From the UHGV virus genome UHGV-1375816: a DNA stretch of 48,935 bases; one strand, written 5' to 3'. The stretch's first letter is position 1; every line of letters starts with the position of its first letter. The stretch comes from a virus. The translations under genes were made by a program, and so were the position numbers. The notes beneath the pieces were generated by a model that did no database searches, had not been told where the DNA came from, and saw only the letters and a list, made by a program, of their open reading frames with translations. Positions 2,007-46,054 of this stretch are shown here, piece by piece.

Positions 2007-3419
2007 ATGGCTAAGGCTGCTAAAACAAACCTTCATCTCATGCCCGCCCGGACTACCGACGGACTGGTAAACGTCGTGTCTGGTCTTGGAACGTGGAAAG
2101 CGAAACGCTCTCATAACATGTTCACATACGCCAATTTAGGCGACTGGAAATCCCTGGACAATGCCTACCAATCAAACTGGCTGGCCCGTCAGATTGTGGA
2201 AATACCCGCAGAAGACATGTGCCGCGAGTGGCGCACCATCAAGTGCAAGGAAGCCGATGACATTCGCATCGAAGAAGACCGTCTGATGATAGCTGCCAAC
2301 GTGCAGGAGGCTGTCACATGGGCGCGTCTGTATGGTGGCGGTGGTATTCTCATGCTGACCGGGCAGGACCTGTCAAAGCCGCTCGACGTGCGCCGTATTC
2401 GCAAAGGTGATTTGAAGCGTTGTATCGTGTTTGACCGTCACGACATGTCACCGCTCACCCTGAACACCTGGGACATTCTGGCACCTAACTACATGATGCC
2501 GGAGTATTACACCATTACCGGCGGCGGTCAGCAAATCCACTGGACCCATTTTGCGCGCTTCAATGGTAAGCGTTTGCCGCGTCGCCAGATGGTCCAGACT
2601 CAGGGATGGGGTGACAGTGAGTTACGCGTGTGCCTCGATGACATCATGGACATGGTTGCATCGAAGGACGGTATTGCGGAACTGATGCAGGAAGCCAACG
2701 TTGATGTGGTCAAACGTGAAGGATTATCCGATGAGTTAGCCAGCGACCAGGATGACGCAATTGTGTCGCGTTACACCCTGTTCAGTCAGATGAAGTCACT
2801 GGTGCAAATGGCTCTGCTTGACGGTGATGAGTCATACGAACGTAAGACGCTCGACCTGGGCGGTGTTGCGCCAGTGCTTGAGACGTTCATGACGTGGATT
2901 AGTGGTGCGGCCGATATTCCTGTTACGCGCCTGTTCGGTACTTCAGCCAAAGGTTTAAACGCCACGGGTGAAGGAGACATGAACAACTACAACAACTCCA
3001 TCCGCTCTAAACAGCTGACACAGGTTGACCCGGGGTTGCGCCAGCTTGATGAGGTGCTGGTACGTAGCGCACTGGGTTACTGGCCTGACGACTTTAACTA
3101 TGAGTGGCGACCACTCGCACAGCCTAATGAATTGCAGATTGCCCAAGCTGCCAAAATCCGCGCCGATAAGGATTTAGCATATCTAGCAGAGGGAATAGTA
3201 AGACCGTCACAAATCATGCGCAATCTCGAATCGTCTGAAGAATATCAGTTTGAAGATGGTGAAATAGATAAACAGGCTTCGGTGGAGTCAGATTACGTTG
3301 CGTCTCCCCCTGACGATGAACCAAAGCTCACCGAACAACAGGATGCGTTCTGGATACGCTATAACCAGTACGTGACAGATGGTCTGTCTCATGATGAGAT
3401 AATGGCAAAACTATCCTAA
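2007..3419 (+). CDS. Portal protein
   Basis: 470 aa immediately after terL. Size, position and acidic C-terminus fit portal proteins. Confidence 0.8.
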   Translation: MAKAAKTNLHLMPARTTDGLVNVVSGLGTWKAKRSHNMFTYANLGDWKSLDNAYQSNWLARQIVEIPAEDMCREWRTIKCKEADDIRIEEDRLMIAANVQEAVTWARLYGGGGILMLTGQDLSKPLDVRRIRKGDLKRCIVFDRHDMSPLTLNTWDILAPNYMMPEYYTITGGGQQIHWTHFARFNGKRLPRRQMVQTQGWGDSELRVCLDDIMDMVASKDGIAELMQEANVDVVKREGLSDELASDQDDAIVSRYTLFSQMKSLVQMALLDGDESYERKTLDLGGVAPVLETFMTWISGAADIPVTRLFGTSAKGLNATGEGDMNNYNNSIRSKQLTQVDPGLRQLDEVLVRSALGYWPDDFNYEWRPLAQPNELQIAQAAKIRADKDLAYLAEGIVRPSQIMRNLESSEEYQFEDGEIDKQASVESDYVASPPDDEPKLTEQQDAFWIRYNQYVTDGLSHDEIMAKLS

Positions 3420-4031
3420 TCTACCCGAGATGTACCTCGCGTACAGTCTCGAAGCGGTACATCTCGGGTATCTTTTGAAGAAGTAGAAGTATGCTTCTTG
3501 ATCGAATTTATTACCTTTCGAACGATTTATTTCTCTCGGCAATAGGCAGAGATTTTCCGAAGTATGTAACCCTCTGACATCCACGCCGCGCAACGGAATG
3601 ATGTGGTCCACTTCGAGGTTACCGCTAAGTAACTTTGCGTATCGGTATAGTTGTGAATAGACTTTTTCTACATCTTCACCGATTGAGGCCTGTATTAAGT
3701 TCGCTCTTCTTTTGACCACTCTGGTCGCAAACTTATCCTTGTTGGCAAGATAATGTCTTTTTGATTTATTGGCATACTTCTCAGGATTTTTTCTTTGCCA
3801 ATCAATCACCCTTTCAGTAATGACGTCTTTGTTTTGTTTGTAATACTCCTCTCTATACTGTGAAACTTTTTCTACGTTCTCAGATTGCCATTTCTTGTTG
3901 TATTGGGAAGTATGTGACCGATTCTGTTCGTTCCACTTTCTCTTGTACTCTTTTCGCATCTCTTTCCATTCTGAAATTCTAAGAGCATACTCGCTGTCTG
4001 TTTCGGTTTCTTTTTGCTTTGGTTTACTCAT
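3411..4031 (-). CDS. HNH endonuclease
   Basis: HNH motif VDHIIPLRGVDVRGLHTSENLCLLPREINRSKGNK. Lys/Glu-rich N-terminus. Inserted between the portal and Mu-F-like genes. Confidence 0.8.
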   Translation of the reverse strand: MSKPKQKETETDSEYALRISEWKEMRKEYKRKWNEQNRSHTSQYNKKWQSENVEKVSQYREEYYKQNKDVITERVIDWQRKNPEKYANKSKRHYLANKDKFATRVVKRRANLIQASIGEDVEKVYSQLYRYAKLLSGNLEVDHIIPLRGVDVRGLHTSENLCLLPREINRSKGNKFDQEAYFYFFKRYPRCTASRLYARYISGRLG

Positions 4032-4099: not shown

Positions 4100-4861
4100 A
4101 TGTCACGACAAACAGAACTAAATTATTATCGTCAGCTGAAACAGGTTGCTCAGCTTGTTCGTGAGGATGTGGACACCAACATTGTACCACTGGTGAAACA
4201 GCTTGCGCCGGAGTACACCGCTGACGGCTGGAGTGACACTATTACCTCGGCAATTAACCAGTTGCTCACACGGTGGCTCGGTGCGTTTGCTCGTCGTCAG
4301 GCCGAAACCATCGCGTCACAGTTTGTACAGACTGCGGCAAAGGATAACGCCCGTTCATTCGCTATCAATCTGTACGGCGGCGATACGCAGTTGCAGGAAT
4401 ATCTGAGCGCAGCATCGTATCAAAATGCTAAACTTATTCAGTCCATTCCGGCTCAGTATCTGGAGCAGGTGCAGAACATTGTCATGACCAACATGCGTAA
4501 CGGTATGCGCCCCAGTTACATCGAGGAGGCACTCGTTAAACAATTTGGTATCACAGAACGTCGCGCCAAATTAATTGCCAGGGACCAGACCAGTAAAATA
4601 CAGGGCGACATGAACCGCATCCGTCAGACAAACAGTGGTATTGAGTATTTCAAATGGATAACGTCACAGGATGAACGGGTACGTCACAGTCATGTTGAAG
4701 TTGCGAAGCGTGATGTGGGATTCGGTGAAGGTGTATTTAAGTGGTCAGATTTACCGGTTGTCGACGGTGTACCAACGTTTCCGGGTCAGCCAATAAATTG
4801 CCGATGCATCAGTAGGCCGGTAACATCGGCAGCGGTAGAGCGGTATAAGGCTAAGAAGTAA
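4100..4861 (+). CDS. Head morphogenesis protein (Mu gpF / SPP1 gp7-like)
   Basis: Position after the portal. The C-terminal ...NCRCIS motif is typical of Phage_Mu_F. Confidence 0.75.
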   Translation: MSRQTELNYYRQLKQVAQLVREDVDTNIVPLVKQLAPEYTADGWSDTITSAINQLLTRWLGAFARRQAETIASQFVQTAAKDNARSFAINLYGGDTQLQEYLSAASYQNAKLIQSIPAQYLEQVQNIVMTNMRNGMRPSYIEEALVKQFGITERRAKLIARDQTSKIQGDMNRIRQTNSGIEYFKWITSQDERVRHSHVEVAKRDVGFGEGVFKWSDLPVVDGVPTFPGQPINCRCISRPVTSAAVERYKAKK

Positions 4862-5051
4862 CCTTATTGACAAGTCGGTCCATCGCTATCCAGCGTTTGG
4901 CTGCGTATCCCGTGGTCAGGTTATGACCGGTGAACTCCACGATATCTTCGAGGAAGTTCAGTTTGATGTTTGTCACGGTGATAATACCGTCCACATCGAT
5001 AAATTTGTCATTGTTGCGGAGCGTTACCGCTTTGACAGGTTTATAGTTCAT
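4851..5051 (-). CDS. Hypothetical small protein
   Basis: Member of a tightly packed minus-strand gene run with start/stop overlaps. Confidence 0.4.
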   Translation of the reverse strand: MNYKPVKAVTLRNNDKFIDVDGIITVTNIKLNFLEDIVEFTGHNLTTGYAAKRWIAMDRLVNKVTS

Positions 5052-5200
5052 TTTCCATACGCCTCACGTAACACAGCGTTAGCGAGCGCCCAACCTTCAT
5101 GCTTACGTGCAAGCTGTTGTGCGACCTTTAACAGTTCTTTATTGACAATGCGCGCCTCTGATACGGGGCGGTTGTAGCCGGGAAGTAACGTGTTATTCAT
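5048..5200 (-). CDS. Hypothetical small protein (MNNTLLPGYNRPVSEARIVNKELLKVAQQLARKHEGWALANAVLREAYGK)
   Basis: GGGAG RBS 7 nt before ATG 5200. The ORF track extends it to 5239. Confidence 0.4.
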   Translation of the reverse strand: MNNTLLPGYNRPVSEARIVNKELLKVAQQLARKHEGWALANAVLREAYGK

Positions 5201-5399
5201 TGACAAACTCCCATGATGCGTCATCGTCGAGGTGCTCACATTTAAACTCTGAGTTCACGGTGCAGATTGTAATCAGGTCGCCCTCATCGTCAACAATATC
5301 ACCCCTTTCCAATCCCGGTGAATATGGTTTGAAATCATAATGCTTACCGTTGGTTAAGTAATCGCAGTCAGCCGGCACGTTGTTGGTAAATACTTTCAT
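5193..5399 (-). CDS. Hypothetical acidic small protein
   Basis: GAGAGGG RBS before ATG 5399. A palindromic promoter lies upstream. Confidence 0.5.
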   Translation of the reverse strand: MKVFTNNVPADCDYLTNGKHYDFKPYSPGLERGDIVDDEGDLITICTVNSEFKCEHLDDDASWEFVNE

Positions 5400-5424
5400 C
5401 TCTCAAACCCTCTCTGTTGTTGAT

Positions 5425-5460
5425 GAACTGAGTATACGTCATCCCTGACGAACTCGTCAA
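5425..5460 (-). promoter_or_regulatory. Promoter with palindromic -35 (TTGACGAGTTCGTCAG), an 18-nt spacer and TATACT -10
   Basis: Reverse complement of 5431..5460. Member of the TTGACG-N4-CGTCAA family. Confidence 0.55.
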
Positions 5461-5466
5461 ATTAAA

Positions 5467-5667
5467 TCACTCCTGCGGCGGGTCGGGTAATGGTTGCCAG
5501 TGGGTTACAAACCCGCCATTTTCGCTTTCAACCCACCACCGGTCGCCATTCCACGAACAGTTCCATTGATAGTGTGATTTCCCCAGGTCATTTTGCTCTT
5601 CCACATAGCACCAGTAACGGCCGGCATCTTCAGGCAATCTATCACTACATTTAATCCAGTCTGCCAT
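5467..5667 (-). CDS. DUF551-like protein
   Basis: MADWIKCSDRLPEDAGRYWCYVEE...WQPLPDPP is the characteristic DUF551 pattern of enterobacterial phages. Confidence 0.6.
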   Translation of the reverse strand: MADWIKCSDRLPEDAGRYWCYVEEQNDLGKSHYQWNCSWNGDRWWVESENGGFVTHWQPLPDPPQE

Positions 5668-11136: not shown

Positions 11137-11556
11137 ATGGATATCACCGCCGAAGTTATCGCAGATTTTCGCATCTGGCCAGGTGGGATGGGTATTTTCG
11201 AGGATACCGTTAAATTCCCGGATGCACTACTTCAATACGCCCTTTGTCGTGGGGATGTTGCAACTGGTTCTCGTCGATGGGGAGAATATCAACCGGACTG
11301 CCATTCTAATAAGATGACAGGAATGTTTCTCTATACTGCGGCCTGGCTAGCAATGTATTATCCAGACGGTATGGGGGGAGATGTGAACACGGAAGCAAGA
11401 TTAAACGTTGCTTCGAAATCCGTGGGAGATGAATCAATTGCATATCGAGTTCCCCAAATGATGGAGGTTAACAATGACTTCCTTACCTATACTATATTCG
11501 GGCAGGAGTTCTATTCACTACGTAAAAAAATCGGAATGGGCGCTTTAGCCGTTTAA
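11137..11556 (+). CDS. DUF4054-like head-tail joining protein (candidate)
   Basis: ATG 11137 overlaps the previous stop. The C-terminus ...[11 protein letters not shown] is duplicated at 12584..12613. Confidence 0.45.
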
Positions 11557-12459
11557 AAATCTAAACCATAGTGGAATCTTTGGGTTCCACTTTAACCATT
11601 CGGTACACCCCTGAAACCCTTTCAGATTTGCACTCTCAAATTGTAAATGCATTTGTTTTTCCAATTCTCGAATTAAGTGGCCATCAACATTTTTAAACTT
11701 TTCCAAAACTTCGAAACTGAACGGAGTATAAGTTCTTAACTGTGAAATTCTGGTTTCGATATTGTTGGTGATACCGACTTTCAACAAGTTGTCTTCTGAA
11801 ATTAGGCAGTACAACCATGCGGGTTTGTCGGGATTAAACCCTGTCTTCGCACAACTTGGACAACGCGTACCGTGTTTAAAAGCGGAGAACCCAACCTTCC
11901 ACACACCATGTTTCTTACATCTACAATTGAAAGTACTACGGGCGTTATTGTAACCTTCACACCAACCCTCGAATGTGTACCCGGAGTCTTCGCACATCTT
12001 AATAGTCTGCTTAGTTCGTTTCTCTACGTCATATCTTTGTTTTTCTGATGATGTCTCTTTAGAACATTTTGGACATCGAGAACCTCCGACAAATGACCTG
12101 ACAGACGTCTCCCATTCCCCATGTCTTTGACAGTTGAAAACGACTCTGCTTGTATTCTTGCCGTCGTAATGTGACCACCTGGTGAAACTATAGATAGTGT
12201 TTTGCAGTTCCGTTTCGAATTGATCTTGCCTTTCTTCTCGGCTGAACATTCGTTTACTTACGCCGCACATCAGACATCTGGTACCGTTTATGAAACATCC
12301 AAGCGTACCAATTTGTTCACCGTGCTTTTCACACGTATATGTGAATTTTGACCTGACACCTTTAAACTTGCCCATCCACCCGACAAAAGAGTAAATCGTA
12401 CCCTCGCAAAGTTCAGCGATTTGTTGCTCTCTTACTTCTTGTGGAATGCGTGTGGCCAT
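11545..12459 (-). CDS. T5orf172-domain homing-type endonuclease with N-terminal zinc-ribbon repeats
   Basis: Repeated CxxHGEW...GxxCPxC modules. C-terminal [25 protein letters not shown]...CTEWLKW is the T5orf172 pattern. First ATG is at 12459; the track's TTG 12507 start is less likely. Confidence 0.7.
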
Positions 12460-12622
12460 TTCTGTGAATCCGGTATCTGTGGGGTTAAATGATACCGGGC
12501 GGACCAACCTCTGAAGGCGCTACATCCGTAACTTTAATGTTGCCCGTGTGGAGACTGTAACACTCACTGTGTTAAAATGCAAACGCGTCGGTATGGGCGC
12601 ATTAGCCATATGAGGTAATTAA

Positions 12623-32355: not shown

Positions 32356-32637
32356 ATGAGCTTTACTGGAAACACACAAGTCGGAACAGTAGTGGCGAGC
32401 GGGACGACGATAACGGGACTGATGACTAAATACGGCATTACCCCGGAAACCGTCGGTATCTTCGCCACCTTGTGTGGTATTATACTGACGGTTGTCATGA
32501 TTTGTGGTCACATACAACGAATTCGTAATGAGTCCGCCGAGCGTAAGGAGAAGGAAATTATTGCGCGAATTGAGCGCGAAAAGGCAGAAATTGAACTTGC
32601 TGAAATGCGTCAAAAGACGAACAAACCGGCGCAGTAA
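32356..32637 (+). CDS. Pinholin-like holin (class II: SAR-like TMD1, TMD2, charged C-terminus)
   Basis: TQVGTVVASGTTITGLM (weak TMD), VGIFATLCGIILTVVMICG (TMD), then RIRNESAERKEKEIIARIEREKAE. It pairs with the SAR endolysin. The track start at 32323 is upstream. Confidence 0.55.
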   Translation: MSFTGNTQVGTVVASGTTITGLMTKYGITPETVGIFATLCGIILTVVMICGHIQRIRNESAERKEKEIIARIEREKAEIELAEMRQKTNKPAQ

Positions 32638-32653
32638 TGCGCCGGTAGTTTCA

Positions 32654-32995
32654 CTAACCGTAAGGCTTCCACACGACCACGGATGCTTTTTCACATTGCC
32701 TCACCATATCCGCAGTCCCATTACCGCCGGGAAACGCAACACAGTAATCGGGTTTTCCAAAGTTTAACATTGCCCAATTTCGCTTCGGTCCGGCCCCTTT
32801 ACCATGTGCATTCCACAGGGCATCCATTCTCATAACGAACACGCCGTGTTTCTTCGCCCACATGTCAGCGATGCTATCCGTGCCTCTCGCACCACCGTGG
32901 ATAATTAGTTCAATTTTGAACGGCAACATCTCCATAGCTTTTTCAAACGCATCAAAATCCGAATAATCCCGCCCACCTGTTATGAGAACTTTCAT
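32654..32995 (-). CDS. DUF2493 / SLOG-family (DprA-like Rossmann) protein
   Basis: MKVLITGGRDY...IIHGGARGTDSIADMWAKKHGV...HGKGAGPKRNWAML matches the DUF2493 pattern. Confidence 0.6.
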   Translation of the reverse strand: MKVLITGGRDYSDFDAFEKAMEMLPFKIELIIHGGARGTDSIADMWAKKHGVFVMRMDALWNAHGKGAGPKRNWAMLNFGKPDYCVAFPGGNGTADMVRQCEKASVVVWKPYG

Positions 32996-33585
32996 TTTGT
33001 GACCCCCAACAACGGTAAAACTAACTTTTCCGCTTCTTTCACATAATATTCGTAGTCCAGACTACCCCAGTCGAAATCCTTAGCGTCGGCACACTCTGTC
33101 ACCTTCCACCCCGCGCACATACTTGTTTCACGTACTGCATCATGCTTGCTGCGGCTCTTCGTGTGGATACGTTCATCCCACGGTATACCGATGCTGTCGA
33201 GTTCTCCCGGTTGCCCTGTAATCTCACGCATTACCGCATTGTACACGTCGTCTTTGACACCATTCTTGCGCTTCCATGTGCCGGGTGTGCCGGTTGGTGG
33301 TAACAGCTTAACCAGTGACCCACCATTGCGCGAGATAAACACACGTGTGGTGTTCTGCATCTCCTGTTCAGCACCCCATTCAGGCCAACGCATTACCAGA
33401 CGTGCAGAGCGCGGTACTTTAGCGCGCAGCATGAAGTCGAACGGGTCACGATGCCGAGTGATGAATGTGCGGATGTCCTCACCGTGTACGAGGGCGGCTT
33501 CGGCAGCGCGGGCAACAATCATCGCCGATGGGTCTTGATGCCACTGGTATTTGTACTCGTAACACCCTTTTCTTTTAATCTTCAC
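32992..33585 (-). CDS. Candidate C-terminal (thumb, KxY) fragment of the split family-B DNA polymerase
   Basis: Begins VKIKRKGCYEYKY (KxY-like) with a GGAGG RBS before GTG 33585. It lies immediately downstream of the homing endonuclease gene that follows the PolB N-fragment. Confidence 0.4.
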   Translation of the reverse strand: MKIKRKGCYEYKYQWHQDPSAMIVARAAEAALVHGEDIRTFITRHRDPFDFMLRAKVPRSARLVMRWPEWGAEQEMQNTTRVFISRNGGSLVKLLPPTGTPGTWKRKNGVKDDVYNAVMREITGQPGELDSIGIPWDERIHTKSRSKHDAVRETSMCAGWKVTECADAKDFDWGSLDYEYYVKEAEKLVLPLLGVTK

Positions 33586-34411
33586 GGGTTGCCTCCAGCA
33601 TTTCTAAAATTCGATTGTCCCATTTCAACCATTCGGTACAACCATCAAAACCGGATAATCCAGCATTAACGAAAGAAGAATGATATTTTCTCTCCAAGTT
33701 CCTAGCGTCGTCGACCATCATCATTCTCATGAGTTTGAATCCGAACGGGGTTGCCCTTTTCAACTGTGAGAAGCGCCTGGTTGGTCTATTGGTTATTCCT
33801 ACCTTTACAAATTTCGAGTCATCACTGCGGAGAAAATAGATATATCCGGGCAAGGATGGATTGAAACCACCGTATTCGCAACAATATGGACACCCCGTAC
33901 CCTTGTTGCATACATTATCGGAGGTGGCATCCCATTCATGACCATTACCACATCGGAATCGAGATAACTTTCGACTACTACCACGATAAATCAGACAACT
34001 TAGCCCTCTCGCCGCTATCCGCTCATTTATATCTTCCACCGACAATCTCACTCTCTTCGAGCAGTGAGGGCAACCTGATGAACGCATCACACTATCGGCG
34101 GTCGTTTCCCATTCATGACCATTGACACAGCGGAATCGCGATTTACCCATGACACTACCCGAATACCTAATGCACAATATACTCCTGGTCGACAACCTTT
34201 TATTTATTTCTTCCAACTTAAGCTTCGCCCTACCGGCACAATGGGGGCATCCGTTACCAGACAGTACCGCATCTGCGCGGACAGACCACAAATGCCCGTG
34301 GGAGCATTTGAAATTGGATTTCCTCATTGTCGAACCAGCATAGGATATACAAATCAACCCACGTTCATGGATTCTCTCGTTGATCGAATCGATGGTGTGT
34401 CTCATTTTCAT
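33575..34411 (-). CDS. T5orf172-domain homing-type endonuclease with zinc-ribbon repeats, inserted in the PolB gene
   Basis: Three CxxGHEW...GxGCPxC modules plus C-terminal KVGITNRPTRRFSQLKRATPFGF...CTEWLKW. ATG 34411 overlaps the PolB fragment stop (ATGA). Confidence 0.7.
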   Translation of the reverse strand: MKMRHTIDSINERIHERGLICISYAGSTMRKSNFKCSHGHLWSVRADAVLSGNGCPHCAGRAKLKLEEINKRLSTRSILCIRYSGSVMGKSRFRCVNGHEWETTADSVMRSSGCPHCSKRVRLSVEDINERIAARGLSCLIYRGSSRKLSRFRCGNGHEWDATSDNVCNKGTGCPYCCEYGGFNPSLPGYIYFLRSDDSKFVKVGITNRPTRRFSQLKRATPFGFKLMRMMMVDDARNLERKYHSSFVNAGLSGFDGCTEWLKWDNRILEMLEATRED

Positions 34412-35931
34412 TCTATTACCATTATATAACTGTTCACATCGCGCTGATAAAGAGATTTCACAATGTCGGTCTCCAGATTCAGCATTGTCGTTTTTTCCCA
34501 TTCGGCACAAATCGATTCAACTAAAGTTTCGTATTTGTTTTCGTAAAAGATGACGATTCCGTCAGTATTAGTTTGGGGCACTACTAACCCTGGTACGCGA
34601 GTCGTAAGTTGATCCACTAACATCGCCAAACAAAGCTGCCCCGTGATGGTAATACTCAGGAGACACTTGTGGTCGCAGAACGGGCTAAACTTGCTCCCCA
34701 TGTTCCCAAAGGTAGAATTTAACGCAAGTTTCAATGTCGCGTCGACAGTTTTATCTCCCGCTCGTTTGGCATCGCGACGACGAATGAATAGTTGTTCGTA
34801 TACGTCACAAAAAATTTCACTAAGGTGTTCTGGGTAATAACGATTCTTAATTGAGATGGATGGGTACATACTCGTACAGTCTTTGTTTTGCAAATTGTGT
34901 GTTCGGGTAGAATGTACAACGTAGTTCGGAATTCCACTGTGGATACCACCCAAACCGAAAGTATATTCAACGCCGTCGACAACGGCGACCATGTCATTGA
35001 AAACGCCCTTCGTGGTTAGTAACTCATCCTGCTGTTTCTTCGTGAGTACAACCCCACGAATGCGTTCCAGAATTTGATTGAACTCCGGTCGTTCGAATTT
35101 GATATAAGGGGGTATGCAATCAGCGAGCGCGATACGTTCACGAATAGTTACCCCTGAGCAATCCACCCCCGCCTTTTCCAGTTCATGAACAAATATATCT
35201 TTACCGATTTTGGTGTCGGCATGATTCATAAAGTTACGTCCGTATTGCTTTGTCAGTTCCTCGCGGAAATGAATTTTGTCGAGTGAACGTACAAAGAATT
35301 TAAGTGTTTCACGAACGTCGTGCTTGTTGTATGCGATGAGGAAATCTTTCTGCTGGTCGTTCAACACCATTTCGACCGGGAATGGCAGGTCTTTTACGTT
35401 GGGGGACCGCATGCCTACTTCTAACGCCTTCAGGCTGGTACGTCGGGCTTTATTGTCGAAGTGGTTTATTTTGTACAGGTCAATCTGCTCGAAAATCTGG
35501 TCGCGGTCCCATATAATTTCTGGCCACTGACCTTCGGGCTTAATCTGTGATTGCGCCTTCGCATAAATCTGTTCCAGTGTACAACCCGGCGTATTGACCA
35601 CGTAGTGTAGCACCGGATAGTCGAATGCCAGGTTATTAAATCCAATCCCACGGGCCTTACTACGTCCCAGGTTGAATACAAATTCGATTAATTGCGGCTG
35701 CTCGTTTTTACGATCACTGATTTCGAAGACTAACTCCATACCTGTCGCAGCGTGAATAAATGAGGCGGTGAAGATGTTCTTGTATGTCTCTAAATCGTAT
35801 CCCCAGTCTCGTGGGTCCAGTGGTGCAACGCTGGAGAACGCCGAATCAGCCCCACAGTGGGGGCAATTGTGGAGGTCAGCAGGATAATTTTTACCACACG
35901 TTGCATCCTCGCATTTTGATAAATAGTGCAT
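34408..35931 (-). CDS. Family-B DNA polymerase, N-terminal fragment (zinc finger, 3'-5' exonuclease, palm motifs A, B and C)
   Basis: Exo I WGYDLETY, Exo II FNNLAFDYPVL, Exo III YNKHDV. Motif A DCTSMYPSI (DxxSLYPS), motif B KLALNSTFG (Kx3NSxYG), motif C TNTDGI. The ORF ends ~45 aa after motif C. Confidence 0.75.
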   Translation of the reverse strand: MHYLSKCEDATCGKNYPADLHNCPHCGADSAFSSVAPLDPRDWGYDLETYKNIFTASFIHAATGMELVFEISDRKNEQPQLIEFVFNLGRSKARGIGFNNLAFDYPVLHYVVNTPGCTLEQIYAKAQSQIKPEGQWPEIIWDRDQIFEQIDLYKINHFDNKARRTSLKALEVGMRSPNVKDLPFPVEMVLNDQQKDFLIAYNKHDVRETLKFFVRSLDKIHFREELTKQYGRNFMNHADTKIGKDIFVHELEKAGVDCSGVTIRERIALADCIPPYIKFERPEFNQILERIRGVVLTKKQQDELLTTKGVFNDMVAVVDGVEYTFGLGGIHSGIPNYVVHSTRTHNLQNKDCTSMYPSISIKNRYYPEHLSEIFCDVYEQLFIRRRDAKRAGDKTVDATLKLALNSTFGNMGSKFSPFCDHKCLLSITITGQLCLAMLVDQLTTRVPGLVVPQTNTDGIVIFYENKYETLVESICAEWEKTTMLNLETDIVKSLYQRDVNSYIMVIE

Positions 35932-35979
35932 CTCTGTTCCTCTCTGTAAGAAAAGCCCCAGTTAAGGGGCTAAAGGCAT

Positions 35980-36099
35980 TACGATTTATTTAACCCATTC
36001 TGGTTAATATATTCCCGGCGTTGCTCCTGCACCTTTTTGATAGCGCGTTCCAGTTCGGCTAACTTTTCATCAAACTGTTTCAGTCGTTGGTCGGTCATG
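35980..36099 (-). CDS. 39-aa coiled-coil peptide
   Basis: AGAGAGGTG RBS. MTDQRLKQFDEKLAELERAIKKVQEQRREYINQNGLNKS. A hairpin with a T-run follows on the minus strand. Not in the ORF track. Confidence 0.4.
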
Positions 36100-36146
36100 A
36101 TACACCTCTCTGTTGAGTTACCCCGGCTCGCACCGGGGCGTTGTGG

Positions 36147-36959
36147 TTATGCTACTTTCTGACAGTGTTGTGCGATTAACTCTTCGCTCCAGCCGGGCAT
36201 ACCAAGCAACTGTGCTTTGGTATACACCGCGCCGTTGTAGCTGTACTTCTCTTCAACAACCGGCGGCGGTGTTACTAACAGGTCAGTTGCTGGCGGTGGT
36301 GTTGCAGGTGCCGGAGCAGCTGGAGTCGGGGTTGGAGCTACCTGAGCAGGTGCACCACCGCCGAATACGCTTGCTGCATCCGGACCACTACCTTCACGAA
36401 CAATCGCTTCGCCAGAGCGTGAAAGTTCGAGCAGGTTCGGGTTCAAATACACGCCCGGAGTTTTGGACGGCTTATTACCTTTTGCCACAATATTCACACG
36501 AACGTAATCACCGAGTTTAATAGCATTTGCGTCCTGAATCGCATCGAGCGGGTTATATTTACCAACATGATAACAGTTGTACGGAATACGGGTGTTCAGG
36601 TGCAAGACCCAGTGACCGCGTTTATATTCGTCCTCATTCGGTGCGTGACCGGCTTTGTTAGGGATATCACTGTCACCGTCGATCACTTTCCAGGAAAAGT
36701 CGGGGCGGCGAGTGGTGGCGGCATCGTAACCGTTTTCAGCGTCCATCGCCGCCATTACGATTTGTTTACCCCATTCGGTATCTTTCCAGTCCGCTTCACC
36801 GGTTTTAGGAATTGCAATACCGATGTAAATCTCTTTAATGGGCTGACCATCTTTACCAAGAACCGGTTGTTTTGTAACTCCATCAGTGCGTACATTCTGT
36901 TTCAGCGGGTGGCCGTGAATCAGGCGAGCAACAGGGGTAACGAAAGTAAATTGAGCCAT
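36147..36959 (-). CDS. Candidate ssDNA-binding protein (DUF2815-like) with Pro/Ala-rich linker
   Basis: Position between the polymerase and the DUF2800-like nuclease, the usual arrangement of that replication module. AGAGAGGA RBS. The linker is PTPTPAAPAPATPPPA. Confidence 0.35.
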   Translation of the reverse strand: MAQFTFVTPVARLIHGHPLKQNVRTDGVTKQPVLGKDGQPIKEIYIGIAIPKTGEADWKDTEWGKQIVMAAMDAENGYDAATTRRPDFSWKVIDGDSDIPNKAGHAPNEDEYKRGHWVLHLNTRIPYNCYHVGKYNPLDAIQDANAIKLGDYVRVNIVAKGNKPSKTPGVYLNPNLLELSRSGEAIVREGSGPDAASVFGGGAPAQVAPTPTPAAPAPATPPPATDLLVTPPPVVEEKYSYNGAVYTKAQLLGMPGWSEELIAQHCQKVA

Positions 36960-39183: not shown

Positions 39184-39411
39184 ATGACGCTGTTGGGACA
39201 ATTGATTACCGATATGGTGGAAAAGCAGAACTTTGAAAACAAAGTAAAAATTCTTTCGGAAATGCCAGAATGGGAGTTCATTACAGTGATGGGTTACGGT
39301 TTCTTTGATGAAATCTGTGCGGGTACAACACATAAGGGTGTCTATTACACTGAACAGGAAATTTATGCGGCGTACTGGAAACGCAACCCCGACGCGGAGC
39401 CACTATTATGA
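39184..39411 (+). CDS. Hypothetical protein
   Basis: GAGG RBS. Lies downstream of the consensus promoter. Confidence 0.5.
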   Translation: MTLLGQLITDMVEKQNFENKVKILSEMPEWEFITVMGYGFFDEICAGTTHKGVYYTEQEIYAAYWKRNPDAEPLL

Positions 39412-39689
39412 AAATTAAACAACTGCTCCGACCTTCTTACGGCTGGTACAATTCGGTCAGTAAGAAGGATAAATGGTTCCTCGACGATGTGCAGATACCG
39501 ATGTATGTGGCACGTAAATTAATCAGAAAAGCACGCATGGTCGAGTCGAACAGCGTGCGTAAAGTGTGGGAGATGTGGTTGACATGTGGTGAATCACCTC
39601 TCATAATGGAGCAACGTTTTGACATTGGGAGAGGTGAAACATGGCTAACCATAGAAAAGATATCACTGGTGAAAAATTCGGGATGTTAA
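39408..39689 (+). CDS. Hypothetical protein
   Basis: ORF with ATGA overlap to the previous gene. Confidence 0.45.
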   Translation: MKIKQLLRPSYGWYNSVSKKDKWFLDDVQIPMYVARKLIRKARMVESNSVRKVWEMWLTCGESPLIMEQRFDIGRGETWLTIEKISLVKNSGC

Positions 39690-40306
39690 CAGCAATAAAA
39701 CCAGTTCGCACAAATGAAAGGGGTGGTTGGATTTGGTTATTTAAGTGTGAATGTGGGGGTACAACCGAACGACTCGTCAGTACAATGTTAATTGCTAAAA
39801 AATCTGGAAAAAAATCACATTGTGGTTGTTCACCAGCATTGAAAACGCACGGTCTGTCCAAACGTTTTCGAAAATTAAATTGGGTCTGGACGGCAATGAA
39901 ACAACGCTGTTACAACCCGGAGTGTAAAGACTTTCCTCATTATGGTGGTCGCGGTATTACTGTCTGTCCAGAGTGGCATGATTTCGAGTTATTTCACGCC
40001 TGGGCAATATCCTCAGGGTATAAAGAAAAAGTGACAATAGAAAGAAAAGATGTAGATGGTGATTATTGTCCCGAAAATTGCACTTGGATTGAAAACGAGA
40101 AGCAACCATTAAATAGAACCAATACTCTGAAATACGAGTACAACGGGAAAATGTATGATATCCGTGAACTATCAGAGGTATCGGGTATTAATTATTACAC
40201 TTTGAAGGGTAGGTTAACTCACTACGGGTGGTCGGTAGAACGCGCAATTTCAGAACCATCGTTTAAGGGTAAGAATCAGACATATAAGGGGCCGACAAAA
40301 TGCTAA
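39641..40306 (+). CDS. HNH-family homing endonuclease with N-terminal Cys4 finger. Paralogue of 6155..6838
   Basis: CECGG..CGC, YGGRGITVCPEW, VDGDYCPENCTWIENEKQ. Confidence 0.75.
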   Translation: MANHRKDITGEKFGMLTAIKPVRTNERGGWIWLFKCECGGTTERLVSTMLIAKKSGKKSHCGCSPALKTHGLSKRFRKLNWVWTAMKQRCYNPECKDFPHYGGRGITVCPEWHDFELFHAWAISSGYKEKVTIERKDVDGDYCPENCTWIENEKQPLNRTNTLKYEYNGKMYDIRELSEVSGINYYTLKGRLTHYGWSVERAISEPSFKGKNQTYKGPTKC

Positions 40307-41973
40307 TAATGCGCCCATATCAACAAGACGCTATCGACAATGTGTACGCAAATTGGGCTGTCGGTAAGCGTTTTGTAGTTCTGGTGATGCCGACAGGCAG
40401 TGGTAAAGCAAGCGTACTATGTGAAATTGCGCGAATCGAAGCGGCACGCGGGCAGCGAGTGCTGATAACCGCCCACCGTTCAGAGCTAATATCACAGTTA
40501 AGCAATACATTAGCCAGAAACGAACTCCGTCACAATATAATTGCGGCACACTCGACAATAAAGTATTCAATCAGGCTCCACATGGAGGACCACGGCCGAA
40601 CTTATTACGACCCATCAGCAAAAATAACCGTCGCTTCAGTTCAGTCCGTTAAACAACAACACATCGATGAACTGAAGGCGTACCGCGATAAATTAACAAT
40701 CATAGGTGACGAATTTCACCATTATACGCGCGACTCAAAAACGTGGGGCGGTGTTTTTACACCGCTTGATAACGCGGGTGCACGCGGTTTAGGGTTGACA
40801 GCTACACCATGTCGGGCCGATGGAAAAGGGTTGTCACGTGAAACAGACGGATATGGTGACGCACTCGTTATCGGGCCGGGAATGCGTGACCTTATCGAGA
40901 TGGGTTTTCTGGTGGATTACAAAATTTATTGTCCACCTTCCGATTTACATCTTGATAGAGTTAAAGTCAGCACCACGACTGGCGATTATGCCGAAAAAGA
41001 ACTCAAGGAGGAAATTGGTAAATCCCACATTGTGGGGGACATAGTTCAACACTGGCTAAAATTTACACCCGGTAAACGTGGTGTGACTTTCACTGTCGGC
41101 GTGGATATGGCGGAAGAAGTTGCTGACGCGTACCGCGCAAAAGGTGTGCCTGCTGTAGCTGTATCGGGGAGGATGAAAGACAGTGAACGTATTCAGGCAC
41201 TGCGTGATATTGCCAGCGGAAAAGTTTTACAGATTGTAAACGATAGTGTTCTCACAGAAGGGACAGACGTTAGTTCCCTGGAAGTCGTATCATTTGCGCG
41301 ACCTACGCAAAGCTACGCGCTTTTTTGCCAGATGTTTGGGCGAGGCACGCGGACCAGTCCCGACACGGGGAAGACATATCTCACGGTCATCGATGCTGTA
41401 TCAAACGTCATGCGCCACGGTTTACCGGATGCACCGCGTGAGTGGAGTCTTGACCGCCGGGAGCGTCGCACGGGTAAAAGTGAACCATCGACGGTGCGCG
41501 TGTGTACAGCTTGTGCGGCAGTGTATGAGCGGTTCCTCGACGCATGTCCGGACTGCGGCGAGCCTGTACCTAAACCGGCAGACCGCTCCGGCCCGATGCA
41601 GGTGGACGGCGACCTGTACGAGCTTGACCCGGATGTACTGGCACAGATGCGCAATGAGGTTGTGGGAGCACGTGAGACACCCGAGGCAATGCGCAACAGG
41701 CTGACGGCGATGAATGTACCACCCGCTGGAGTGATGGCTAATGTCAAGCGTCAAAGTGAGCGCCTGGAAGTGCTGGGACGACTGGATGGTCTGATGGCGA
41801 CTATTGCCGGTTACTGGCGACACGACGGCATGAGCGACAAAGAAATATTTCGTAAATTTTTCCTGACTTATCACGTCGACTGGTTAAGTGCACAAGGCCT
41901 GAAAAAAGATGATGCACTAACACTTATGGAAAAAATACAAAATGACGTTGACGGACTCGTCAAAACGCACTAA
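40300..41973 (+). CDS. SF2 DNA helicase (DEAD/DEAH-like) with C-terminal zinc ribbon
   Basis: Walker A VLVMPTGSGKAS, motif II IIGDEFHHY, C-terminal CTACAAVYERFLDACPDCG. Confidence 0.75.
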   Translation: MLIMRPYQQDAIDNVYANWAVGKRFVVLVMPTGSGKASVLCEIARIEAARGQRVLITAHRSELISQLSNTLARNELRHNIIAAHSTIKYSIRLHMEDHGRTYYDPSAKITVASVQSVKQQHIDELKAYRDKLTIIGDEFHHYTRDSKTWGGVFTPLDNAGARGLGLTATPCRADGKGLSRETDGYGDALVIGPGMRDLIEMGFLVDYKIYCPPSDLHLDRVKVSTTTGDYAEKELKEEIGKSHIVGDIVQHWLKFTPGKRGVTFTVGVDMAEEVADAYRAKGVPAVAVSGRMKDSERIQALRDIASGKVLQIVNDSVLTEGTDVSSLEVVSFARPTQSYALFCQMFGRGTRTSPDTGKTYLTVIDAVSNVMRHGLPDAPREWSLDRRERRTGKSEPSTVRVCTACAAVYERFLDACPDCGEPVPKPADRSGPMQVDGDLYELDPDVLAQMRNEVVGARETPEAMRNRLTAMNVPPAGVMANVKRQSERLEVLGRLDGLMATIAGYWRHDGMSDKEIFRKFFLTYHVDWLSAQGLKKDDALTLMEKIQNDVDGLVKTH

Positions 41974-43106: not shown

Positions 43107-43787
43107 ATGGGAGGCAAACGTCTAACGACGGTTGATTTCATTGAAAAGTCCACGGGGGTGCATAATGGCAAGTATGACTATAGGAAATCGTTGTACATCA
43201 ACAGTTTGACCAAATTGACAATAACTTGTCCTGAGCATGGGGATTTTAAACGAATCCCCAGTAGTCACCTCCGAGGATATGGGTGTCCAAAATGCGGAGG
43301 GAAACTGAAAAGCAATACCCTCGATTTCATTCGGAAGGCACTTTTAGTTTACGATAACAAATACTCGTATGAAAAAGTAAAATACGTTTCCAATAAAACC
43401 AAAGTCACCATTACTTGCTCCGAACATGGTGACTTCAAGCAAACACCCAATCATCATTTACGTGGGGTCGGGTGCCCGAAATGCGCCAAACATGGATTTA
43501 ACCCAGCAAAAAGTGCCACTATTTACGCAATTCGCTCCGATTGTGGGCAATACGTGAAGATCGGGATAACCAACAACTTCGAACAGAGATTTTCTCAATT
43601 GAGAAGGGCAACACCGTTTGACGTATCCGTCATAGAGCGTATAGAATGTGACGGACAAACAGCACGACAGTTTGAAAAGATGTTTCATGACAAATTCGAA
43701 TCCGCCGGGTTTACGGGGTTCGATGGTGCAACAGAATGGTTGCGATGGTCAACAGAATTACAATACTGGTTAAGGTTACTGAAATGA
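43107..43787 (+). CDS. T5orf172-domain homing-type endonuclease with two zinc-ribbon repeats
   Basis: CPEHGDF...GYGCPKCGG occurs twice. C-terminal YVKIGITNNFEQRFSQLRRATPFDV...ATEWLRW. Confidence 0.7.
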   Translation: MGGKRLTTVDFIEKSTGVHNGKYDYRKSLYINSLTKLTITCPEHGDFKRIPSSHLRGYGCPKCGGKLKSNTLDFIRKALLVYDNKYSYEKVKYVSNKTKVTITCSEHGDFKQTPNHHLRGVGCPKCAKHGFNPAKSATIYAIRSDCGQYVKIGITNNFEQRFSQLRRATPFDVSVIERIECDGQTARQFEKMFHDKFESAGFTGFDGATEWLRWSTELQYWLRLLK

Positions 43788-46054
43788 TGATTACAGAGAG
43801 AAAACAGTACATTCCTTACTCACTCATTAAAGTGGGTGACAAAACAACCAAGCGGCCCCACGGTTCCACAACCAACCCGAATGACTGGTTGACGTATGGT
43901 GACGCACTCGCACGGGGTGCCGACGGAGTTGGATTCGTGTTCACCGATACAGACCCATATTTCTTCATTGACATCGACCATTGTCTAATTGACGGGGCAT
44001 GGTCTCCGTTGGCTGTGGAACTGTGTCAGACTTTCGCCGGGTGCTATGTTGAAATTTCACAGAGTGGAACAGCATTGCACATCATTGGGCGATATTCTTC
44101 CATCCCTGAACACGCTTGTAAAAACATACCGCTCGGTATCGAACTCTACCACACCGAAAGATTTGTCGCTTTGACTGGTTCAAGTGCGCAAGGGTCGTGG
44201 GAACACGATGCCACCGGGGCACTAAATACAGTAATTGCACGCTATTTTCCGAAAGAAGAATCCACGGTATTGGTAAAATGGACAGACTCGCCACAGGTGG
44301 GTAGTAACCCGATTGAGGATGATGCGAAACTCATCGAAAAAGCGTGTGCGGCTAAAGAAGGGGTTTCGGTTGTTTTTGGTGGTAAGGCCACTTTTAAAGA
44401 CCTGTGGAATGGTGTGGTATCAGAAGACGACGACCGTTCATCGCTCGACTCATCTCTCGCCACCCGGCTTTTATGGTGGACAGGCGGAAACTGCGAAAGA
44501 ACTAAGTCACTGATGCTGCAGAGTGGCCTCAAAAGAGATAAATGGTTCACCAATAAGTCATATCTGGAGCGAACCATCCTCAACGCCGCCGGACTTCTTA
44601 CAACCTACTACAGTGTCGGCGCACCGATTGAACTGGTGACTCCTGCTCAGGTTGTTGAGACGGGTGCACCGGTTATCCGCAGTGGGTATCAATTCATTGG
44701 TGGCTCACAACTTGTTGACCACTTCAAAGGCTGCGTGTATGTGGCAGACAGTCACCGTATTCTCACGCCAAACGGTCAGATGCTGAAGTCCGAGCAGTTT
44801 AATGCAATGTACGGTGGCTACGTGTTTGCGCTGGATGACGGTAACGAGAAGACCACCAAAAAGGCTTTTGAAGCGTTCACCGAGAACCAGTGCATTATGT
44901 TCCCGAAGGTTGACCGCTCAACGTTCCGTCCGGACCTGCCGCAGGGTGCCATTATCGAAGAAGACGGTCTGCGTCATGTCAACGCATACGTACCGGTGAC
45001 AGTGGCGAGCGTCCCGGGCGATGTGACACCTTTCCTCACTCATCTGGCCAAACTGTTACCCGTTGAGCGCGACCGCGACATCCTGCTGTCCTACATGGCG
45101 GCGTGCGTACAGTACAAAGGGACCAAGTTCAAGTGGGCGCCATTACTGCAGGGTGTTGAAGGTAACGGTAAAACACTGTTCACACTGTGCGTAATGGAAG
45201 CGGTCGGTTCACGTTACAGTCACATGCCGCCAGCGCAGGAAATTGGCGAGAAGTTCAACGCATGGTTATTCGATAAAATATTCATCGGCGTGGAGGATAT
45301 ATACGTTCCGGAGCAGAAACTCGAACTGATTGAAACACTCAAACCGATGATTACCGGTGAGTACCTCGCTAAACGTGCGATGCAGCAGGACCAGGTAATG
45401 CACCGCCTGTGTGCCAACTTCATGTTCAACAGTAACCACAAGAACGCTGTGCGCAAGACCGCTAATGACCGCCGGTTCGCCATTTTCTACACCGCGCAGC
45501 AGGAGCATATCGACATCGTGCGCGACGGTATGGGTGGAGACTACTTCCCCAACCTGTATGACTGGCTCAAACGTGGCGGTGGATTTGCAGCCGTGACGCA
45601 TTATCTGGAGAACTACGCCATTCCCGCACAGTTTAACCCGGCGACACATTGTCAGCGTGCGCCAGAGACCAGCAGTACTCACGAGGCTGTGACAGCATCA
45701 CTTGGCAGCGTCGAACAGGAAATCATGGAAGCAATTGACGAGGGTCGCCAGGGCTTTGCGGGTGGTTGGGTGAGCAGTAAGGCACTGGACAACCTGTTAC
45801 ACCAGATGCGTGCCGACCGCGCTGTACCGGTGGGTAAACGTCGTGACATGATGCGTCAACTAGGTTACGACTGGCACCCGGCGCTCAAGGATGGACGCGT
45901 GAATAACGTGATAATGATTGACGGTGGTAAGCCACGGTTGTACATCAAGATTGGACACATTCACGCTAACCTCACAAATGCAGCAGACGTGGCGCGCCAT
46001 TACGCGGCGGCACAGGGTGATACAAGCGCTATTGCCTTTGCGGAAACTAAATAA
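43784..46054 (+). CDS. Primase / SF3 helicase (primase-polymerase N-terminal domain + D5-like P-loop NTPase)
   Basis: Walker A VEGNGKT. Large N-terminal domain with an acidic catalytic patch FFIDIDH. ATG 43784 overlaps the endonuclease stop (ATGA). The track start at 43736 is upstream. Confidence 0.7.
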   Translation: MMITERKQYIPYSLIKVGDKTTKRPHGSTTNPNDWLTYGDALARGADGVGFVFTDTDPYFFIDIDHCLIDGAWSPLAVELCQTFAGCYVEISQSGTALHIIGRYSSIPEHACKNIPLGIELYHTERFVALTGSSAQGSWEHDATGALNTVIARYFPKEESTVLVKWTDSPQVGSNPIEDDAKLIEKACAAKEGVSVVFGGKATFKDLWNGVVSEDDDRSSLDSSLATRLLWWTGGNCERTKSLMLQSGLKRDKWFTNKSYLERTILNAAGLLTTYYSVGAPIELVTPAQVVETGAPVIRSGYQFIGGSQLVDHFKGCVYVADSHRILTPNGQMLKSEQFNAMYGGYVFALDDGNEKTTKKAFEAFTENQCIMFPKVDRSTFRPDLPQGAIIEEDGLRHVNAYVPVTVASVPGDVTPFLTHLAKLLPVERDRDILLSYMAACVQYKGTKFKWAPLLQGVEGNGKTLFTLCVMEAVGSRYSHMPPAQEIGEKFNAWLFDKIFIGVEDIYVPEQKLELIETLKPMITGEYLAKRAMQQDQVMHRLCANFMFNSNHKNAVRKTANDRRFAIFYTAQQEHIDIVRDGMGGDYFPNLYDWLKRGGGFAAVTHYLENYAIPAQFNPATHCQRAPETSSTHEAVTASLGSVEQEIMEAIDEGRQGFAGGWVSSKALDNLLHQMRADRAVPVGKRRDMMRQLGYDWHPALKDGRVNNVIMIDGGKPRLYIKIGHIHANLTNAADVARHYAAAQGDTSAIAFAETK

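Follow-up and report, generated by a model that had tools for sequence, protein, structure and literature searches.

In the viral genome UHGV-1375816 (48,935 nucleotides, the whole of which is called the window here) the gene for a family-B DNA polymerase (PolB) is interrupted in the loop of a β-hairpin that follows the strand equivalent to the KxY motif, at the border of palm and thumb, and it has very probably been split by a free-standing homing-endonuclease cassette into two functional pieces that are translated separately. The window belongs to a JD001-like Klebsiella phage of the genus Jedunavirus: the region is 97% identical to pKp383 and 93% identical to vB_KpnM_KpV79 (KpV79 below), and about 70 JD001-like myoviruses of the genus also match it. 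An earlier sequence-only reading of this DNA had described a polymerase in two open reading frames (ORFs) with a T5orf172 endonuclease gene between them, and the ORF listing places all three where that reading had put them (positions are those of the window; aa, amino acids; nt, nucleotides):

34408..35931 (−): PolB N-fragment, 507 aa, with zinc ribbon, 3′–5′ exonuclease domain, palm, fingers and, as its last strand, the KxY equivalent (ORF, alignment to phage ZCEC13)
33575..34411 (−): free-standing endonuclease gene, 278 aa from the ATG at 34411 (Pfam, AlphaFold model)
32992..33585 (−): PolB C-fragment, 197 aa, GTG start, with the second hairpin strand (KIKRKG) and the thumb (ORF, alignment to ZCEC13)

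The two polymerase ORFs tile an intact homologue

Escherichia phage ZCEC13, of the same genus, carries a single uninterrupted polymerase gene of 704 aa at the same place; the N-fragment aligns with residues 1–505 of its product (82% identity) and the C-fragment with residues 509–704 (91% identity). The lengths of the fragments likewise add up to 704 (507 + 197), and they lie contiguously on the ZCEC13 protein with just three or four loop residues altered or lost. At the junction intact YIQVGTDGKIKRKG becomes YIMVIE* + (M)KIKRKG in the window or, in longer context, intact ...RDVNNYIQVGTDGKIKRKGAYEY... becomes ...RDVNSYIMVIE* + (M)KIKRKGCYEY.... ZCEC13 is one of eight intact homologues from several genera, the others being 1611E-K2-1 (724 aa), BUCT_47333 (735 aa), Geezett (758 aa), Edwardsiella phage PEi21 (705 aa), Vibrio phage 24 (778 aa), Salmonella phage 9NA (633 aa) and VpaJT_1. 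Uninterrupted homologues, which the sequence-only reading had proposed to look for, are thus present in ZCEC13 and beyond. That reading had also named two findings that would speak against a split, namely a 197-aa ORF without PolB homology and relatives whose complete polymerase ends where the N-fragment does; the ORF corresponds to the C-terminal 197 residues of the intact polymerases, and none of the relatives compared has a polymerase that ends at that point.

The zinc finger, exonuclease motifs and polymerase motifs A, B and C that had been read in the N-fragment are all there, and the catalytic residues are invariant over an alignment of 67 intact homologues:

35854..35913 (−): four-cysteine zinc ribbon, C7, C12, C23 and C26 (aa 7–26); C23 and C26 invariant, C7 and C12 nearly so
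35305..35799 (−): Exo I YDLETY (45–50), Exo II FNNLAFDYPVL (98–108) and Exo III YNKHDVRET (201–209); D46, E48, N99, D104, Y201 and D205 invariant
34858..34881 (−): motif A DCTSMYPS (aa 351–358); D351, S354, Y356 and P357 invariant; aligns to DFRSLYPS of KOD
34705..34731 (−): motif B KLALNSTFG (aa 401–409); K401, N405 and G409 invariant; aligns to K-x3-N-S-x-Y-G of archaeal PolBs
34555..34575 (−): motif C QTNTDGI (aa 453–459; NTDG 454–457); NTDG invariant; aligns to DTDS/DTDG of Sso PolB1 and KOD
34417..34443 (−): RDVNSYIMV, the KxY-equivalent strand and the last before the break; N499 and Y501 invariant; strand 500–505 of the model

Exo I (DxE), Exo II (Nx2-3FD) and Exo III (Yx3D) have the forms expected of a family-B polymerase, and motifs A (DxxSLYPS), B (Kx3NSxYG) and C (DTD[SG]) follow one another in the family-B order; the N-terminal zinc ribbon is missing from the 9NA and VpaJT_1 homologues. 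Because Pfam covers this family poorly (it returned only a sub-threshold DNA_pol_B_exo2 match for the N-fragment and none for the C-fragment), structure and alignments to Protein Data Bank (PDB) entries were used for the polymerase. An AlphaFold model of the intact homologue P0109 (pLDDT 91, pTM 0.85) retrieved, with Foldseek, family-B polymerases as all of its top 50 matches (among them 9°N, KOD, Tgo, Pfu and Pol alpha; E from 8e-16 to 8e-13, about 600–780 aligned columns, TM 0.36–0.50; for archaeal PolBs, E of about 1e-16 to 1e-13 over about 770 columns). The predicted fold of the intact homologue is that of a family-B polymerase over its full length (N-terminal domain, exonuclease, palm, fingers and thumb), and the C-fragment lies within these full-length structural matches. 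A polymerase of 507 + 197 aa had been called very compact, which does not hold, the enzyme being of no unusual compactness for a PolB.

As to the site of the break, alignments made with phmmer and with profiles against Sulfolobus PolB1 and KOD extend from motif B through motif C and the KxY equivalent into the hairpin. In these KKNY (Sso PolB1) and KKKY (KOD) stand opposite VNNY of the ZCEC13 query, which is VNSY (aa 499–502) in the window, so that the tyrosine is invariant (Y501) while the aligned lysines are replaced by V-N-[NS] and the motif is degenerate. KIKRKG of the C-fragment aligns with the second hairpin strand (K-I-T-T-R-G in KOD). By these alignments the N-fragment ends on the KxY-equivalent strand, and the second strand of the hairpin opens the C-fragment; in the P0109 model the break falls in loop 506–509, between strands 500–505 and 510–513. 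The hairpin is one that we take to be the first of the thumb, by the published domain limits of KOD (thumb from about residue 588). The fragments therefore tile across motif C, KxY and thumb, as had been proposed, both on intact ZCEC13 and in the PolB1 and KOD alignments, although two details of the sequence-only reading have to be amended. It had placed a KxY-like motif at the start of the C-fragment, whereas the equivalent (NSY) is at the end of the N-fragment with the break in the loop that follows; and the N-fragment does stop early, not about 45 aa past motif C as stated but 50 aa after the motif C aspartate.

Expression signals and annotation of the locus

The signals within and around the locus, and the gene that follows it, are:

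34408..34411 (−): ATGA overlap of N-fragment stop and endonuclease start codon (sequence)
33592..33596 (−): Shine–Dalgarno sequence GGAGG of the C-fragment gene, 6 nt ahead of the GTG, within the 3′ end of the endonuclease gene (sequence)
32654..32995 (−): DUF2493/YspA-type SLOG gene, outside the polymerase, its start overlapping the C-fragment stop by 4 nt (ORF, Pfam)
35954..35971 (−): terminator-like hairpin immediately upstream of the polymerase start codon (KpV79 has an annotated rho-independent terminator at the equivalent position)
32646..32625 (−): terminator-like hairpin after the DUF2493 gene (hairpin scan)

Both the ATGA overlap on the N-fragment stop, with its ATG at 34411, and the GGAGG in the 3′ end of the endonuclease gene agree with the sequence-only reading. 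The longest form of the endonuclease ORF reaches upstream to a TTG at 34510; the ATG at 34411 is the start annotated in KpV79 and is kept in 12 of the 13 Jedunavirus loci compared (the exception being KpVB3). Similarly, the GGAGG is kept in every locus with this endonuclease 3′ end, and the 3′ end of the endonuclease gene, stop codon included, overlaps the C-fragment ORF by 11 nt. The ATGA overlap suggests translational coupling of the N-fragment and the endonuclease. As the two terminator-like hairpins flank the group and only weak terminator-like matches (3 G–C pairs) lie between them, the genes for the N-fragment, the endonuclease, the C-fragment and the DUF2493 protein probably form one transcription unit. 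A sigma-70-like site (TTATCA-18 nt-TATAAT, 10 of 12 consensus matches) at 34421..34450 (−), inside the end of the N-fragment gene and 10 nt before the endonuclease ATG, could give the endonuclease and C-fragment genes transcription of their own or be due to chance. The 3′ flank of the polymerase is also variable, since the DUF2493 gene is found at this place in ZCEC13, FZ14, JustaPhage and BUCT791 and is absent or replaced in pKp383, KpV79, KpVB3 and RCIP0033.

The locus is already recognised in several GenBank records, in which the two outer genes are each given as DNA polymerase and the middle one as endonuclease, T5orf172 protein, HNH endonuclease or hypothetical protein. In pKp383, the closest RefSeq genome (NC_071136.1, 12922–15852), each half of the polymerase bears the label 'hypothetical protein' and the T5orf172 gene between them is called 'HNH endonuclease'; in JustaPhage the name given to the T5orf172 gene is 'type 2 secretion system protein'.

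Selection on the two halves

The ratio of non-synonymous to synonymous substitution rates (dN/dS) was determined for both halves against seven split relatives and ZCEC13, at dS of 0.3–0.9. Values of 0.05–0.16 for the N-fragment and 0.06–0.15 for the C-fragment indicate strong purifying selection on both, which argues that neither half is decaying, and each of the 13 split Jedunavirus loci has the two polymerase ORFs intact. The features expected of a gene in pieces (tiling on an intact homologue, translation signals of its own for each part, and conservation) were thus all found. It might be supposed instead that the insertion inactivated the polymerase, the fragments being decaying remnants in a phage replicated by another polymerase, and the phage does encode a primase-polymerase-like protein (43736..46054; DUF5906, NrS-1 polymerase HBD domain). 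We regard this as extremely improbable, given that both fragments are full length in 13 of 13 split Jedunavirus genomes with dN/dS low (0.05–0.15) at high dS, that every catalytic motif is intact and the start signals of the C-fragment are conserved, and that the split form is met again in isolated lytic phages of many lineages.

Hardly more credible is a removal or bypass of the insert that would restore one full-length polymerase, whether by a group I or group II intron, an intein, split inteins or translational bypass. Introns and inteins are known in polymerase genes of other phages and archaea, and the two fragments do share a reading frame (35931 minus 33585 is 2346, or 3 × 782), but this shared frame is a consequence of the fixed overlaps of 4 and 11 nt and is lost in the HNH-type alleles. 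A search of 32500..36500 against Rfam returned no intron model even at E = 1 (only a chance match to a small RNA, outside the insert), and there is no space for a ribozyme because the endonuclease ORF fills the 825-nt insert bar a few bases; a group I or II intron was rejected on these grounds. An intein was likewise rejected, the endonuclease being in another frame with 20 stops in the polymerase frame across the insert, and so was a split intein, as the sum of 507 and 197 to 704 leaves the broken ends without extra residues that could be intein halves.

The protein encoded between the halves

The assignment of the middle ORF to the T5orf172 family is upheld by Pfam scores above the curated cut-offs (given in brackets) for T5orf172, 34.4 bits (20), MUG113, 37.9 bits (22.3), and DUF4379, 56.9 bits (24.5); the canonical GIY-YIG model reaches 16.5 bits, below its cut-off of 22.6. 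Two parts can be distinguished in the protein:

33881..34393 (−): three tandem modules of about 59 aa (DUF4379 × 3), each a helix and a treble-clef zinc finger (C-x-H...CPxC) (Pfam, AlphaFold)
33578..33859 (−): T5orf172/GIY-YIG-fold nuclease domain, GYIY...KVGIT...RR...E...FDGCTEW (Pfam, fold)

In the AlphaFold model (pLDDT 92) three helix and zinc-finger repeats, presumed to be the DNA-binding part, are followed by a C-terminal α/β domain, and the T5orf172 domain has the α/β fold of GIY-YIG nucleases. Searched against the PDB, the sequence gave only chance zinc-finger matches (E ≥ 0.2). The window protein has Y192, G205, R213 and E240, four residues that do not vary over 35 homologues; Y192, R213 and E240 correspond to the tyrosine, R27 and E75 of I-TevI by motif order rather than by residue-level superposition. 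The 278-aa protein is presumably an active nuclease and presumably homes, and its dN/dS against KpV79 is 0.04.

That value would suit a gene with a useful role no less than an active selfish gene, and it is conceivable, if unlikely, that the protein is no longer a mobile nuclease and has been domesticated as a DNA-binding protein that regulates, for instance, the replication operon. The three zinc modules make up most of it, it would be retained in any case since its removal requires exact repair of the polymerase gene, and there is a precedent in CapR, a T5orf172 relative that is a domesticated DNA-binding repressor (PMC8096241). However, the nuclease fold is kept, the GIY-YIG-type tyrosine, arginine and glutamate are invariant and present in the window protein, the presence/absence polymorphism, turnover and decay seen at the site (below) are typical of selfish endonuclease genes, and the phage has two more genes of the T5orf172 family elsewhere.

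The first of these (43107..43787, +; T5orf172/MUG113, 226 aa) has one DUF4379 zinc module and overlaps at its 3′ end the start of the primase/helicase-like gene 43736..46054 already mentioned; it is probably another free-standing homing endonuclease beside a replication gene. The second (11545..12507, −; T5orf172/MUG113, 320 aa) has three domains homologous to CapR and lies on the opposite strand among virion genes. An annotated 'homing endonuclease' of pKp383 (gp57, 39229..40143) also lies on the opposite strand among virion genes.

Turnover of inserts at the same loop

The site is empty in ZCEC13, 1611E-K2-1, BUCT_47333, Geezett and PEi21 and occupied in 13 Jedunavirus loci, Edwardsiella phage PVN06 and four metagenomic contigs, so that a single site is polymorphic for presence and absence among close relatives, as expected of a homing endonuclease. 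The N-fragment is exactly 507 aa long in 13 of 13 split Jedunavirus loci examined and the junction ATAATGGTAATAGAATGA is identical in all of these but KpVB3 (12/13), whatever the type of endonuclease. The inserts themselves differ. There are T5orf172 genes with three different N-terminal modules (164–296 aa), a partly duplicated tandem T5orf172 gene in RCIP0033 (160 + 231 aa; 872–2024 of locus L007), a decayed endonuclease in JD001 (3084–3910 of locus L003; a 63-aa C-terminal remnant is annotated and about 635 nt are unannotated), HNH_3+AP2 genes in BUCT_49532 and RCIP0045 and, in KpVB3, a different HNH_3 gene with a junction of its own. One flank allele (LGLETDEV...) is found upstream of three different inserts and another (LNLETDIV...) upstream of three T5orf172 variants. 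The identical junction, with its non-ancestral tail MVIE*, next to unrelated inserts speaks for a succession of endonuclease ORFs, one in place of another, in a gene that was already split. Hence, of the proposal that the T5orf172 gene splits the polymerase, the interruption stands, but this gene is probably one of several occupants that can take one another's place in a gene already split, and need not be the element that split it.

We consider it about evenly balanced whether the split predates the present T5orf172 gene altogether, an earlier element having divided the polymerase and endonuclease ORFs having since been swapped in a fixed slot. In favour are the identity of junction and tail with three T5orf172 variants and the HNH_3+AP2 gene, the occurrence of single flank alleles each with three different inserts or variants, and the decay and duplication seen in the JD001 remnant and the RCIP0033 tandem; the same idea has been raised for gene 43 from a comparison of phages 25 and 44RR, as far as the account in PMC2988022 goes. 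On the other hand, no split allele without an endonuclease or its remnant occurs among the loci examined, recombination in the flank could also shuffle inserts and flanks, and the sequence of events cannot be read from 13 loci. Such an older split refines the explanation by a homing-endonuclease cassette and does not contradict it.

The same loop is split in distant lineages (47–66% identity) by HNH_3 genes in PVN06 and contig L022, by canonical GIY-YIG genes in L023 and L024 and by a T5orf172 gene in L025. Among the 117 best homologues of the N-fragment 21 are split; a flank of the type '[YFHA]Q[RK]D[VC]N[NS]Y' (N-fragment residues of about 490–500) is present in all 21 split alleles and not one of the many 'M.IRDVNNY' alleles is split, so that the QRD-type flank is either recognised by the endonucleases or travels with them. 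An exhaustive search with the C-fragment gave 522 cluster representatives, of which, in a manual count of the best 150, about 26 stand alone from the break point and about 62 are intact; roughly a quarter to a third of the classifiable lineages are split at the loop. A nearly universal split, which a search for C-fragment homologues had seemed to indicate by returning short proteins only, was rejected: that result arose because the word-index search was biased, the N-fragment and exhaustive representative searches corrected it, and intact genes are the majority.

Mosaic sequence upstream of the insert

Homing is most clearly indicated by PVN06 (about 4390–5590 of locus L021) and PEi21 (L016), which form a natural 'before and after' pair. 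These are 95–100% identical in nucleotide sequence except for the HNH gene and about 640 bp upstream of it; identity in this tract is 48–70% and returns to 96–100% at the first codon of the C-fragment. The foreign tract in PVN06 is therefore one-sided, lying upstream only, which suggests a cut site, or resection, reaching upstream of the insertion point. The PVN06 protein is 97% identical to that of its genus-mate MSW-3 over residues 1–300 and 46–64% beyond, and the pattern is reversed against the other HNH-split lineage. The window has a comparable tract:

34412..35100 (−): about 700 bp of mosaic polymerase coding sequence upstream of the insert, a putative co-conversion tract (identity profile)

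Between about 35100 and the junction, identity to ZCEC13, JD001, FZ14, BUCT791, BUCT_49532 and KpVB3 falls from about 90–100% to 50–85%; it rises again in the C-fragment, and the upstream drop is also seen in bins of the protein; these relatives are more distant than the members of the PVN06/PEi21 pair are from each other.

A helicase gene elsewhere in the window (39641..41973, +; ResIII/Helicase_C, 557 aa) shares only 55% identity with the last 535 aa of gp27 of pKp383 (891 aa) and is preceded by an unrelated 221-aa ORF that replaces the gp27 N-terminus. It was considered as a second split gene and rejected, being a divergent allele with a different N-terminal ORF (a module swap in a genome otherwise 97% identical).

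A model for the split gene

In the explanation that we favour with good confidence, the cassette would supply the upstream part of the polymerase with a stop codon, which the endonuclease ATG overlaps (ATGA), and its 3′ end would supply the downstream part with GGAGG and a GTG start. One transcript would then yield three proteins, a 507-aa exonuclease–palm–fingers fragment, the 278-aa endonuclease and a 197-aa thumb fragment, and the two polymerase fragments would reassemble non-covalently, completing the hairpin, into an active enzyme; the viability of the isolated phages and the purifying selection on both halves point to such an assembly. In mixed infections the endonuclease would cut polymerase alleles that lack it, and recombinational repair would copy in the endonuclease gene together with several hundred base pairs of upstream polymerase sequence, the present T5orf172 gene being one of several interchangeable occupants of the slot.

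Several points weigh against this explanation. The clean example of co-conversion is an HNH_3 gene in another genus and not the T5orf172 gene of the window, and the mosaic tract upstream of the latter could be ordinary recombination. We found no T5orf172 protein with demonstrated homing activity in the literature: those of vibriophage ICP1 are putative homing endonucleases that belong to the GIY-YIG superfamily, described as 'predicted' only, and CapR is domesticated (PMC8096241). Finally, separate translation and assembly of the fragments in the window phage are deduced from sequence.

A broader version, in which the hairpin loop is a long-lived 'landing pad', is possible but falls somewhat short of an even chance. 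The split of the gene would be stable, and at a fixed ATGA junction one nuclease gene would be exchanged for another, unrelated one (T5orf172, canonical GIY-YIG, or HNH_3 with or without AP2), each arrival dragging in several hundred base pairs of donor palm and fingers.

Comparison with known split genes

Our literature search found no paper on the split Jedunavirus polymerase, but the likeness to known essential phage genes split by endonucleases, which the sequence-only reading had drawn, is borne out by mobE/nrdA, mobA and seg43. The nearest parallel is Aeromonas phage 25, in which seg43(25) lies between 43A and 43B and the two halves co-purify and polymerise DNA (Petrov, Ratnayaka & Karam 2010; PMC2988022); in phage 44RR gene 43 is split by an untranslated spacer (PMC2988022). 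As far as that account describes them, phage 25 and the window share a replicative family-B polymerase in two cistrons, a free-standing endonuclease of GIY-YIG type between these and an intact gene in relatives. They differ in the polymerase, which is of the T4 gp43 type in phage 25 and belongs in the window to the very distant 9NA/Jedunavirus lineage with its N-terminal zinc ribbon, and in the nuclease, which is of Seg type in the former and of T5orf172 type in the latter; moreover, in the window family the same loop hosts three nuclease families across many lineages.

The insertion of mobE in nrdA of Aeromonas phage Aeh1 (Friedrich et al. 2007) and of mobA between genes 39 and 60 (topoisomerase) of T4 (PMC2988022) also places a free-standing endonuclease within an essential phage gene, at a conserved part that is critical for function. 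In these systems, to the extent that the sources cover them, the endonucleases are of HNH type and the hosts are genes for ribonucleotide reductase and topoisomerase, whereas the host in the window is a polymerase gene; reassembly of the two polypeptides and activity have been demonstrated for them, whereas for the window reassembly is deduced. Start and stop overlap as UAAUGA in T4 nrdA/mobE, which has been read as translational coupling that keeps the endonuclease low (PMC2988022), and as ATGA in the window.

Split archaeal PolBs (Methanothermobacter, Kelman et al. 1999; Nanoarchaeum equitans) resemble the window polymerase in having a large N-terminal and a small C-terminal part that must associate, but in the account available (PMC4104785) they are attributed to inteins, by faulty excision or trans-splicing, and have no endonuclease gene between the halves; the Nanoarchaeum genes are not adjacent, and the window has no intein remnants. 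The 'fractured genes' of phage-like environmental DNA, replication genes included, show the same order of half gene, free-standing endonuclease gene and half gene, with split inteins flanking the endonuclease gene and trans-splicing religating the product (Dassa et al. 2009, PMC2677866). Their broken ends carry split-intein halves, while the window ends tile an intact protein with nothing extra. The T5orf172 proteins of ICP1 combine the same nuclease domain with variable N-terminal zinc or CapR-type DNA-binding modules and occur, as in the window (three), in multiple copies; unlike the window gene those of ICP1 are intergenic and have not been reported to split an essential gene, and the N-terminal modules of the window protein are DUF4379 treble clefs.

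Significance

Essential phage genes split by endonucleases are already known and the locus is already annotated in close relatives, so the current understanding of homing endonucleases and polymerases is unchanged by this split PolB; the wider interest is limited to the reuse of one loop by three nuclease families and to the one-sided co-conversion tract. Within these bounds, a second and independent phage PolB lineage joins the few essential genes that function 'in pieces' after an endonuclease insertion, and the hairpin between palm and thumb appears to be a permissive break point that could help in engineering split PolBs. The many natural alleles (empty, with three nuclease families, decayed and duplicated) make endonuclease turnover and one-sided co-conversion testable. 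Jedunaviruses are therapy phages for Klebsiella, and as long as the halves are not joined, these loci will be misread in comparisons of gene content and in polymerase phylogenies. If the hairpin loop is indeed a landing pad, the family would provide a natural system in which to study how endonucleases succeed one another in an essential gene that is permanently split, and the assembly of a two-piece PolB, and it would be endonuclease traffic, not vertical descent, that shapes the active-site region of the polymerase across phage genera.

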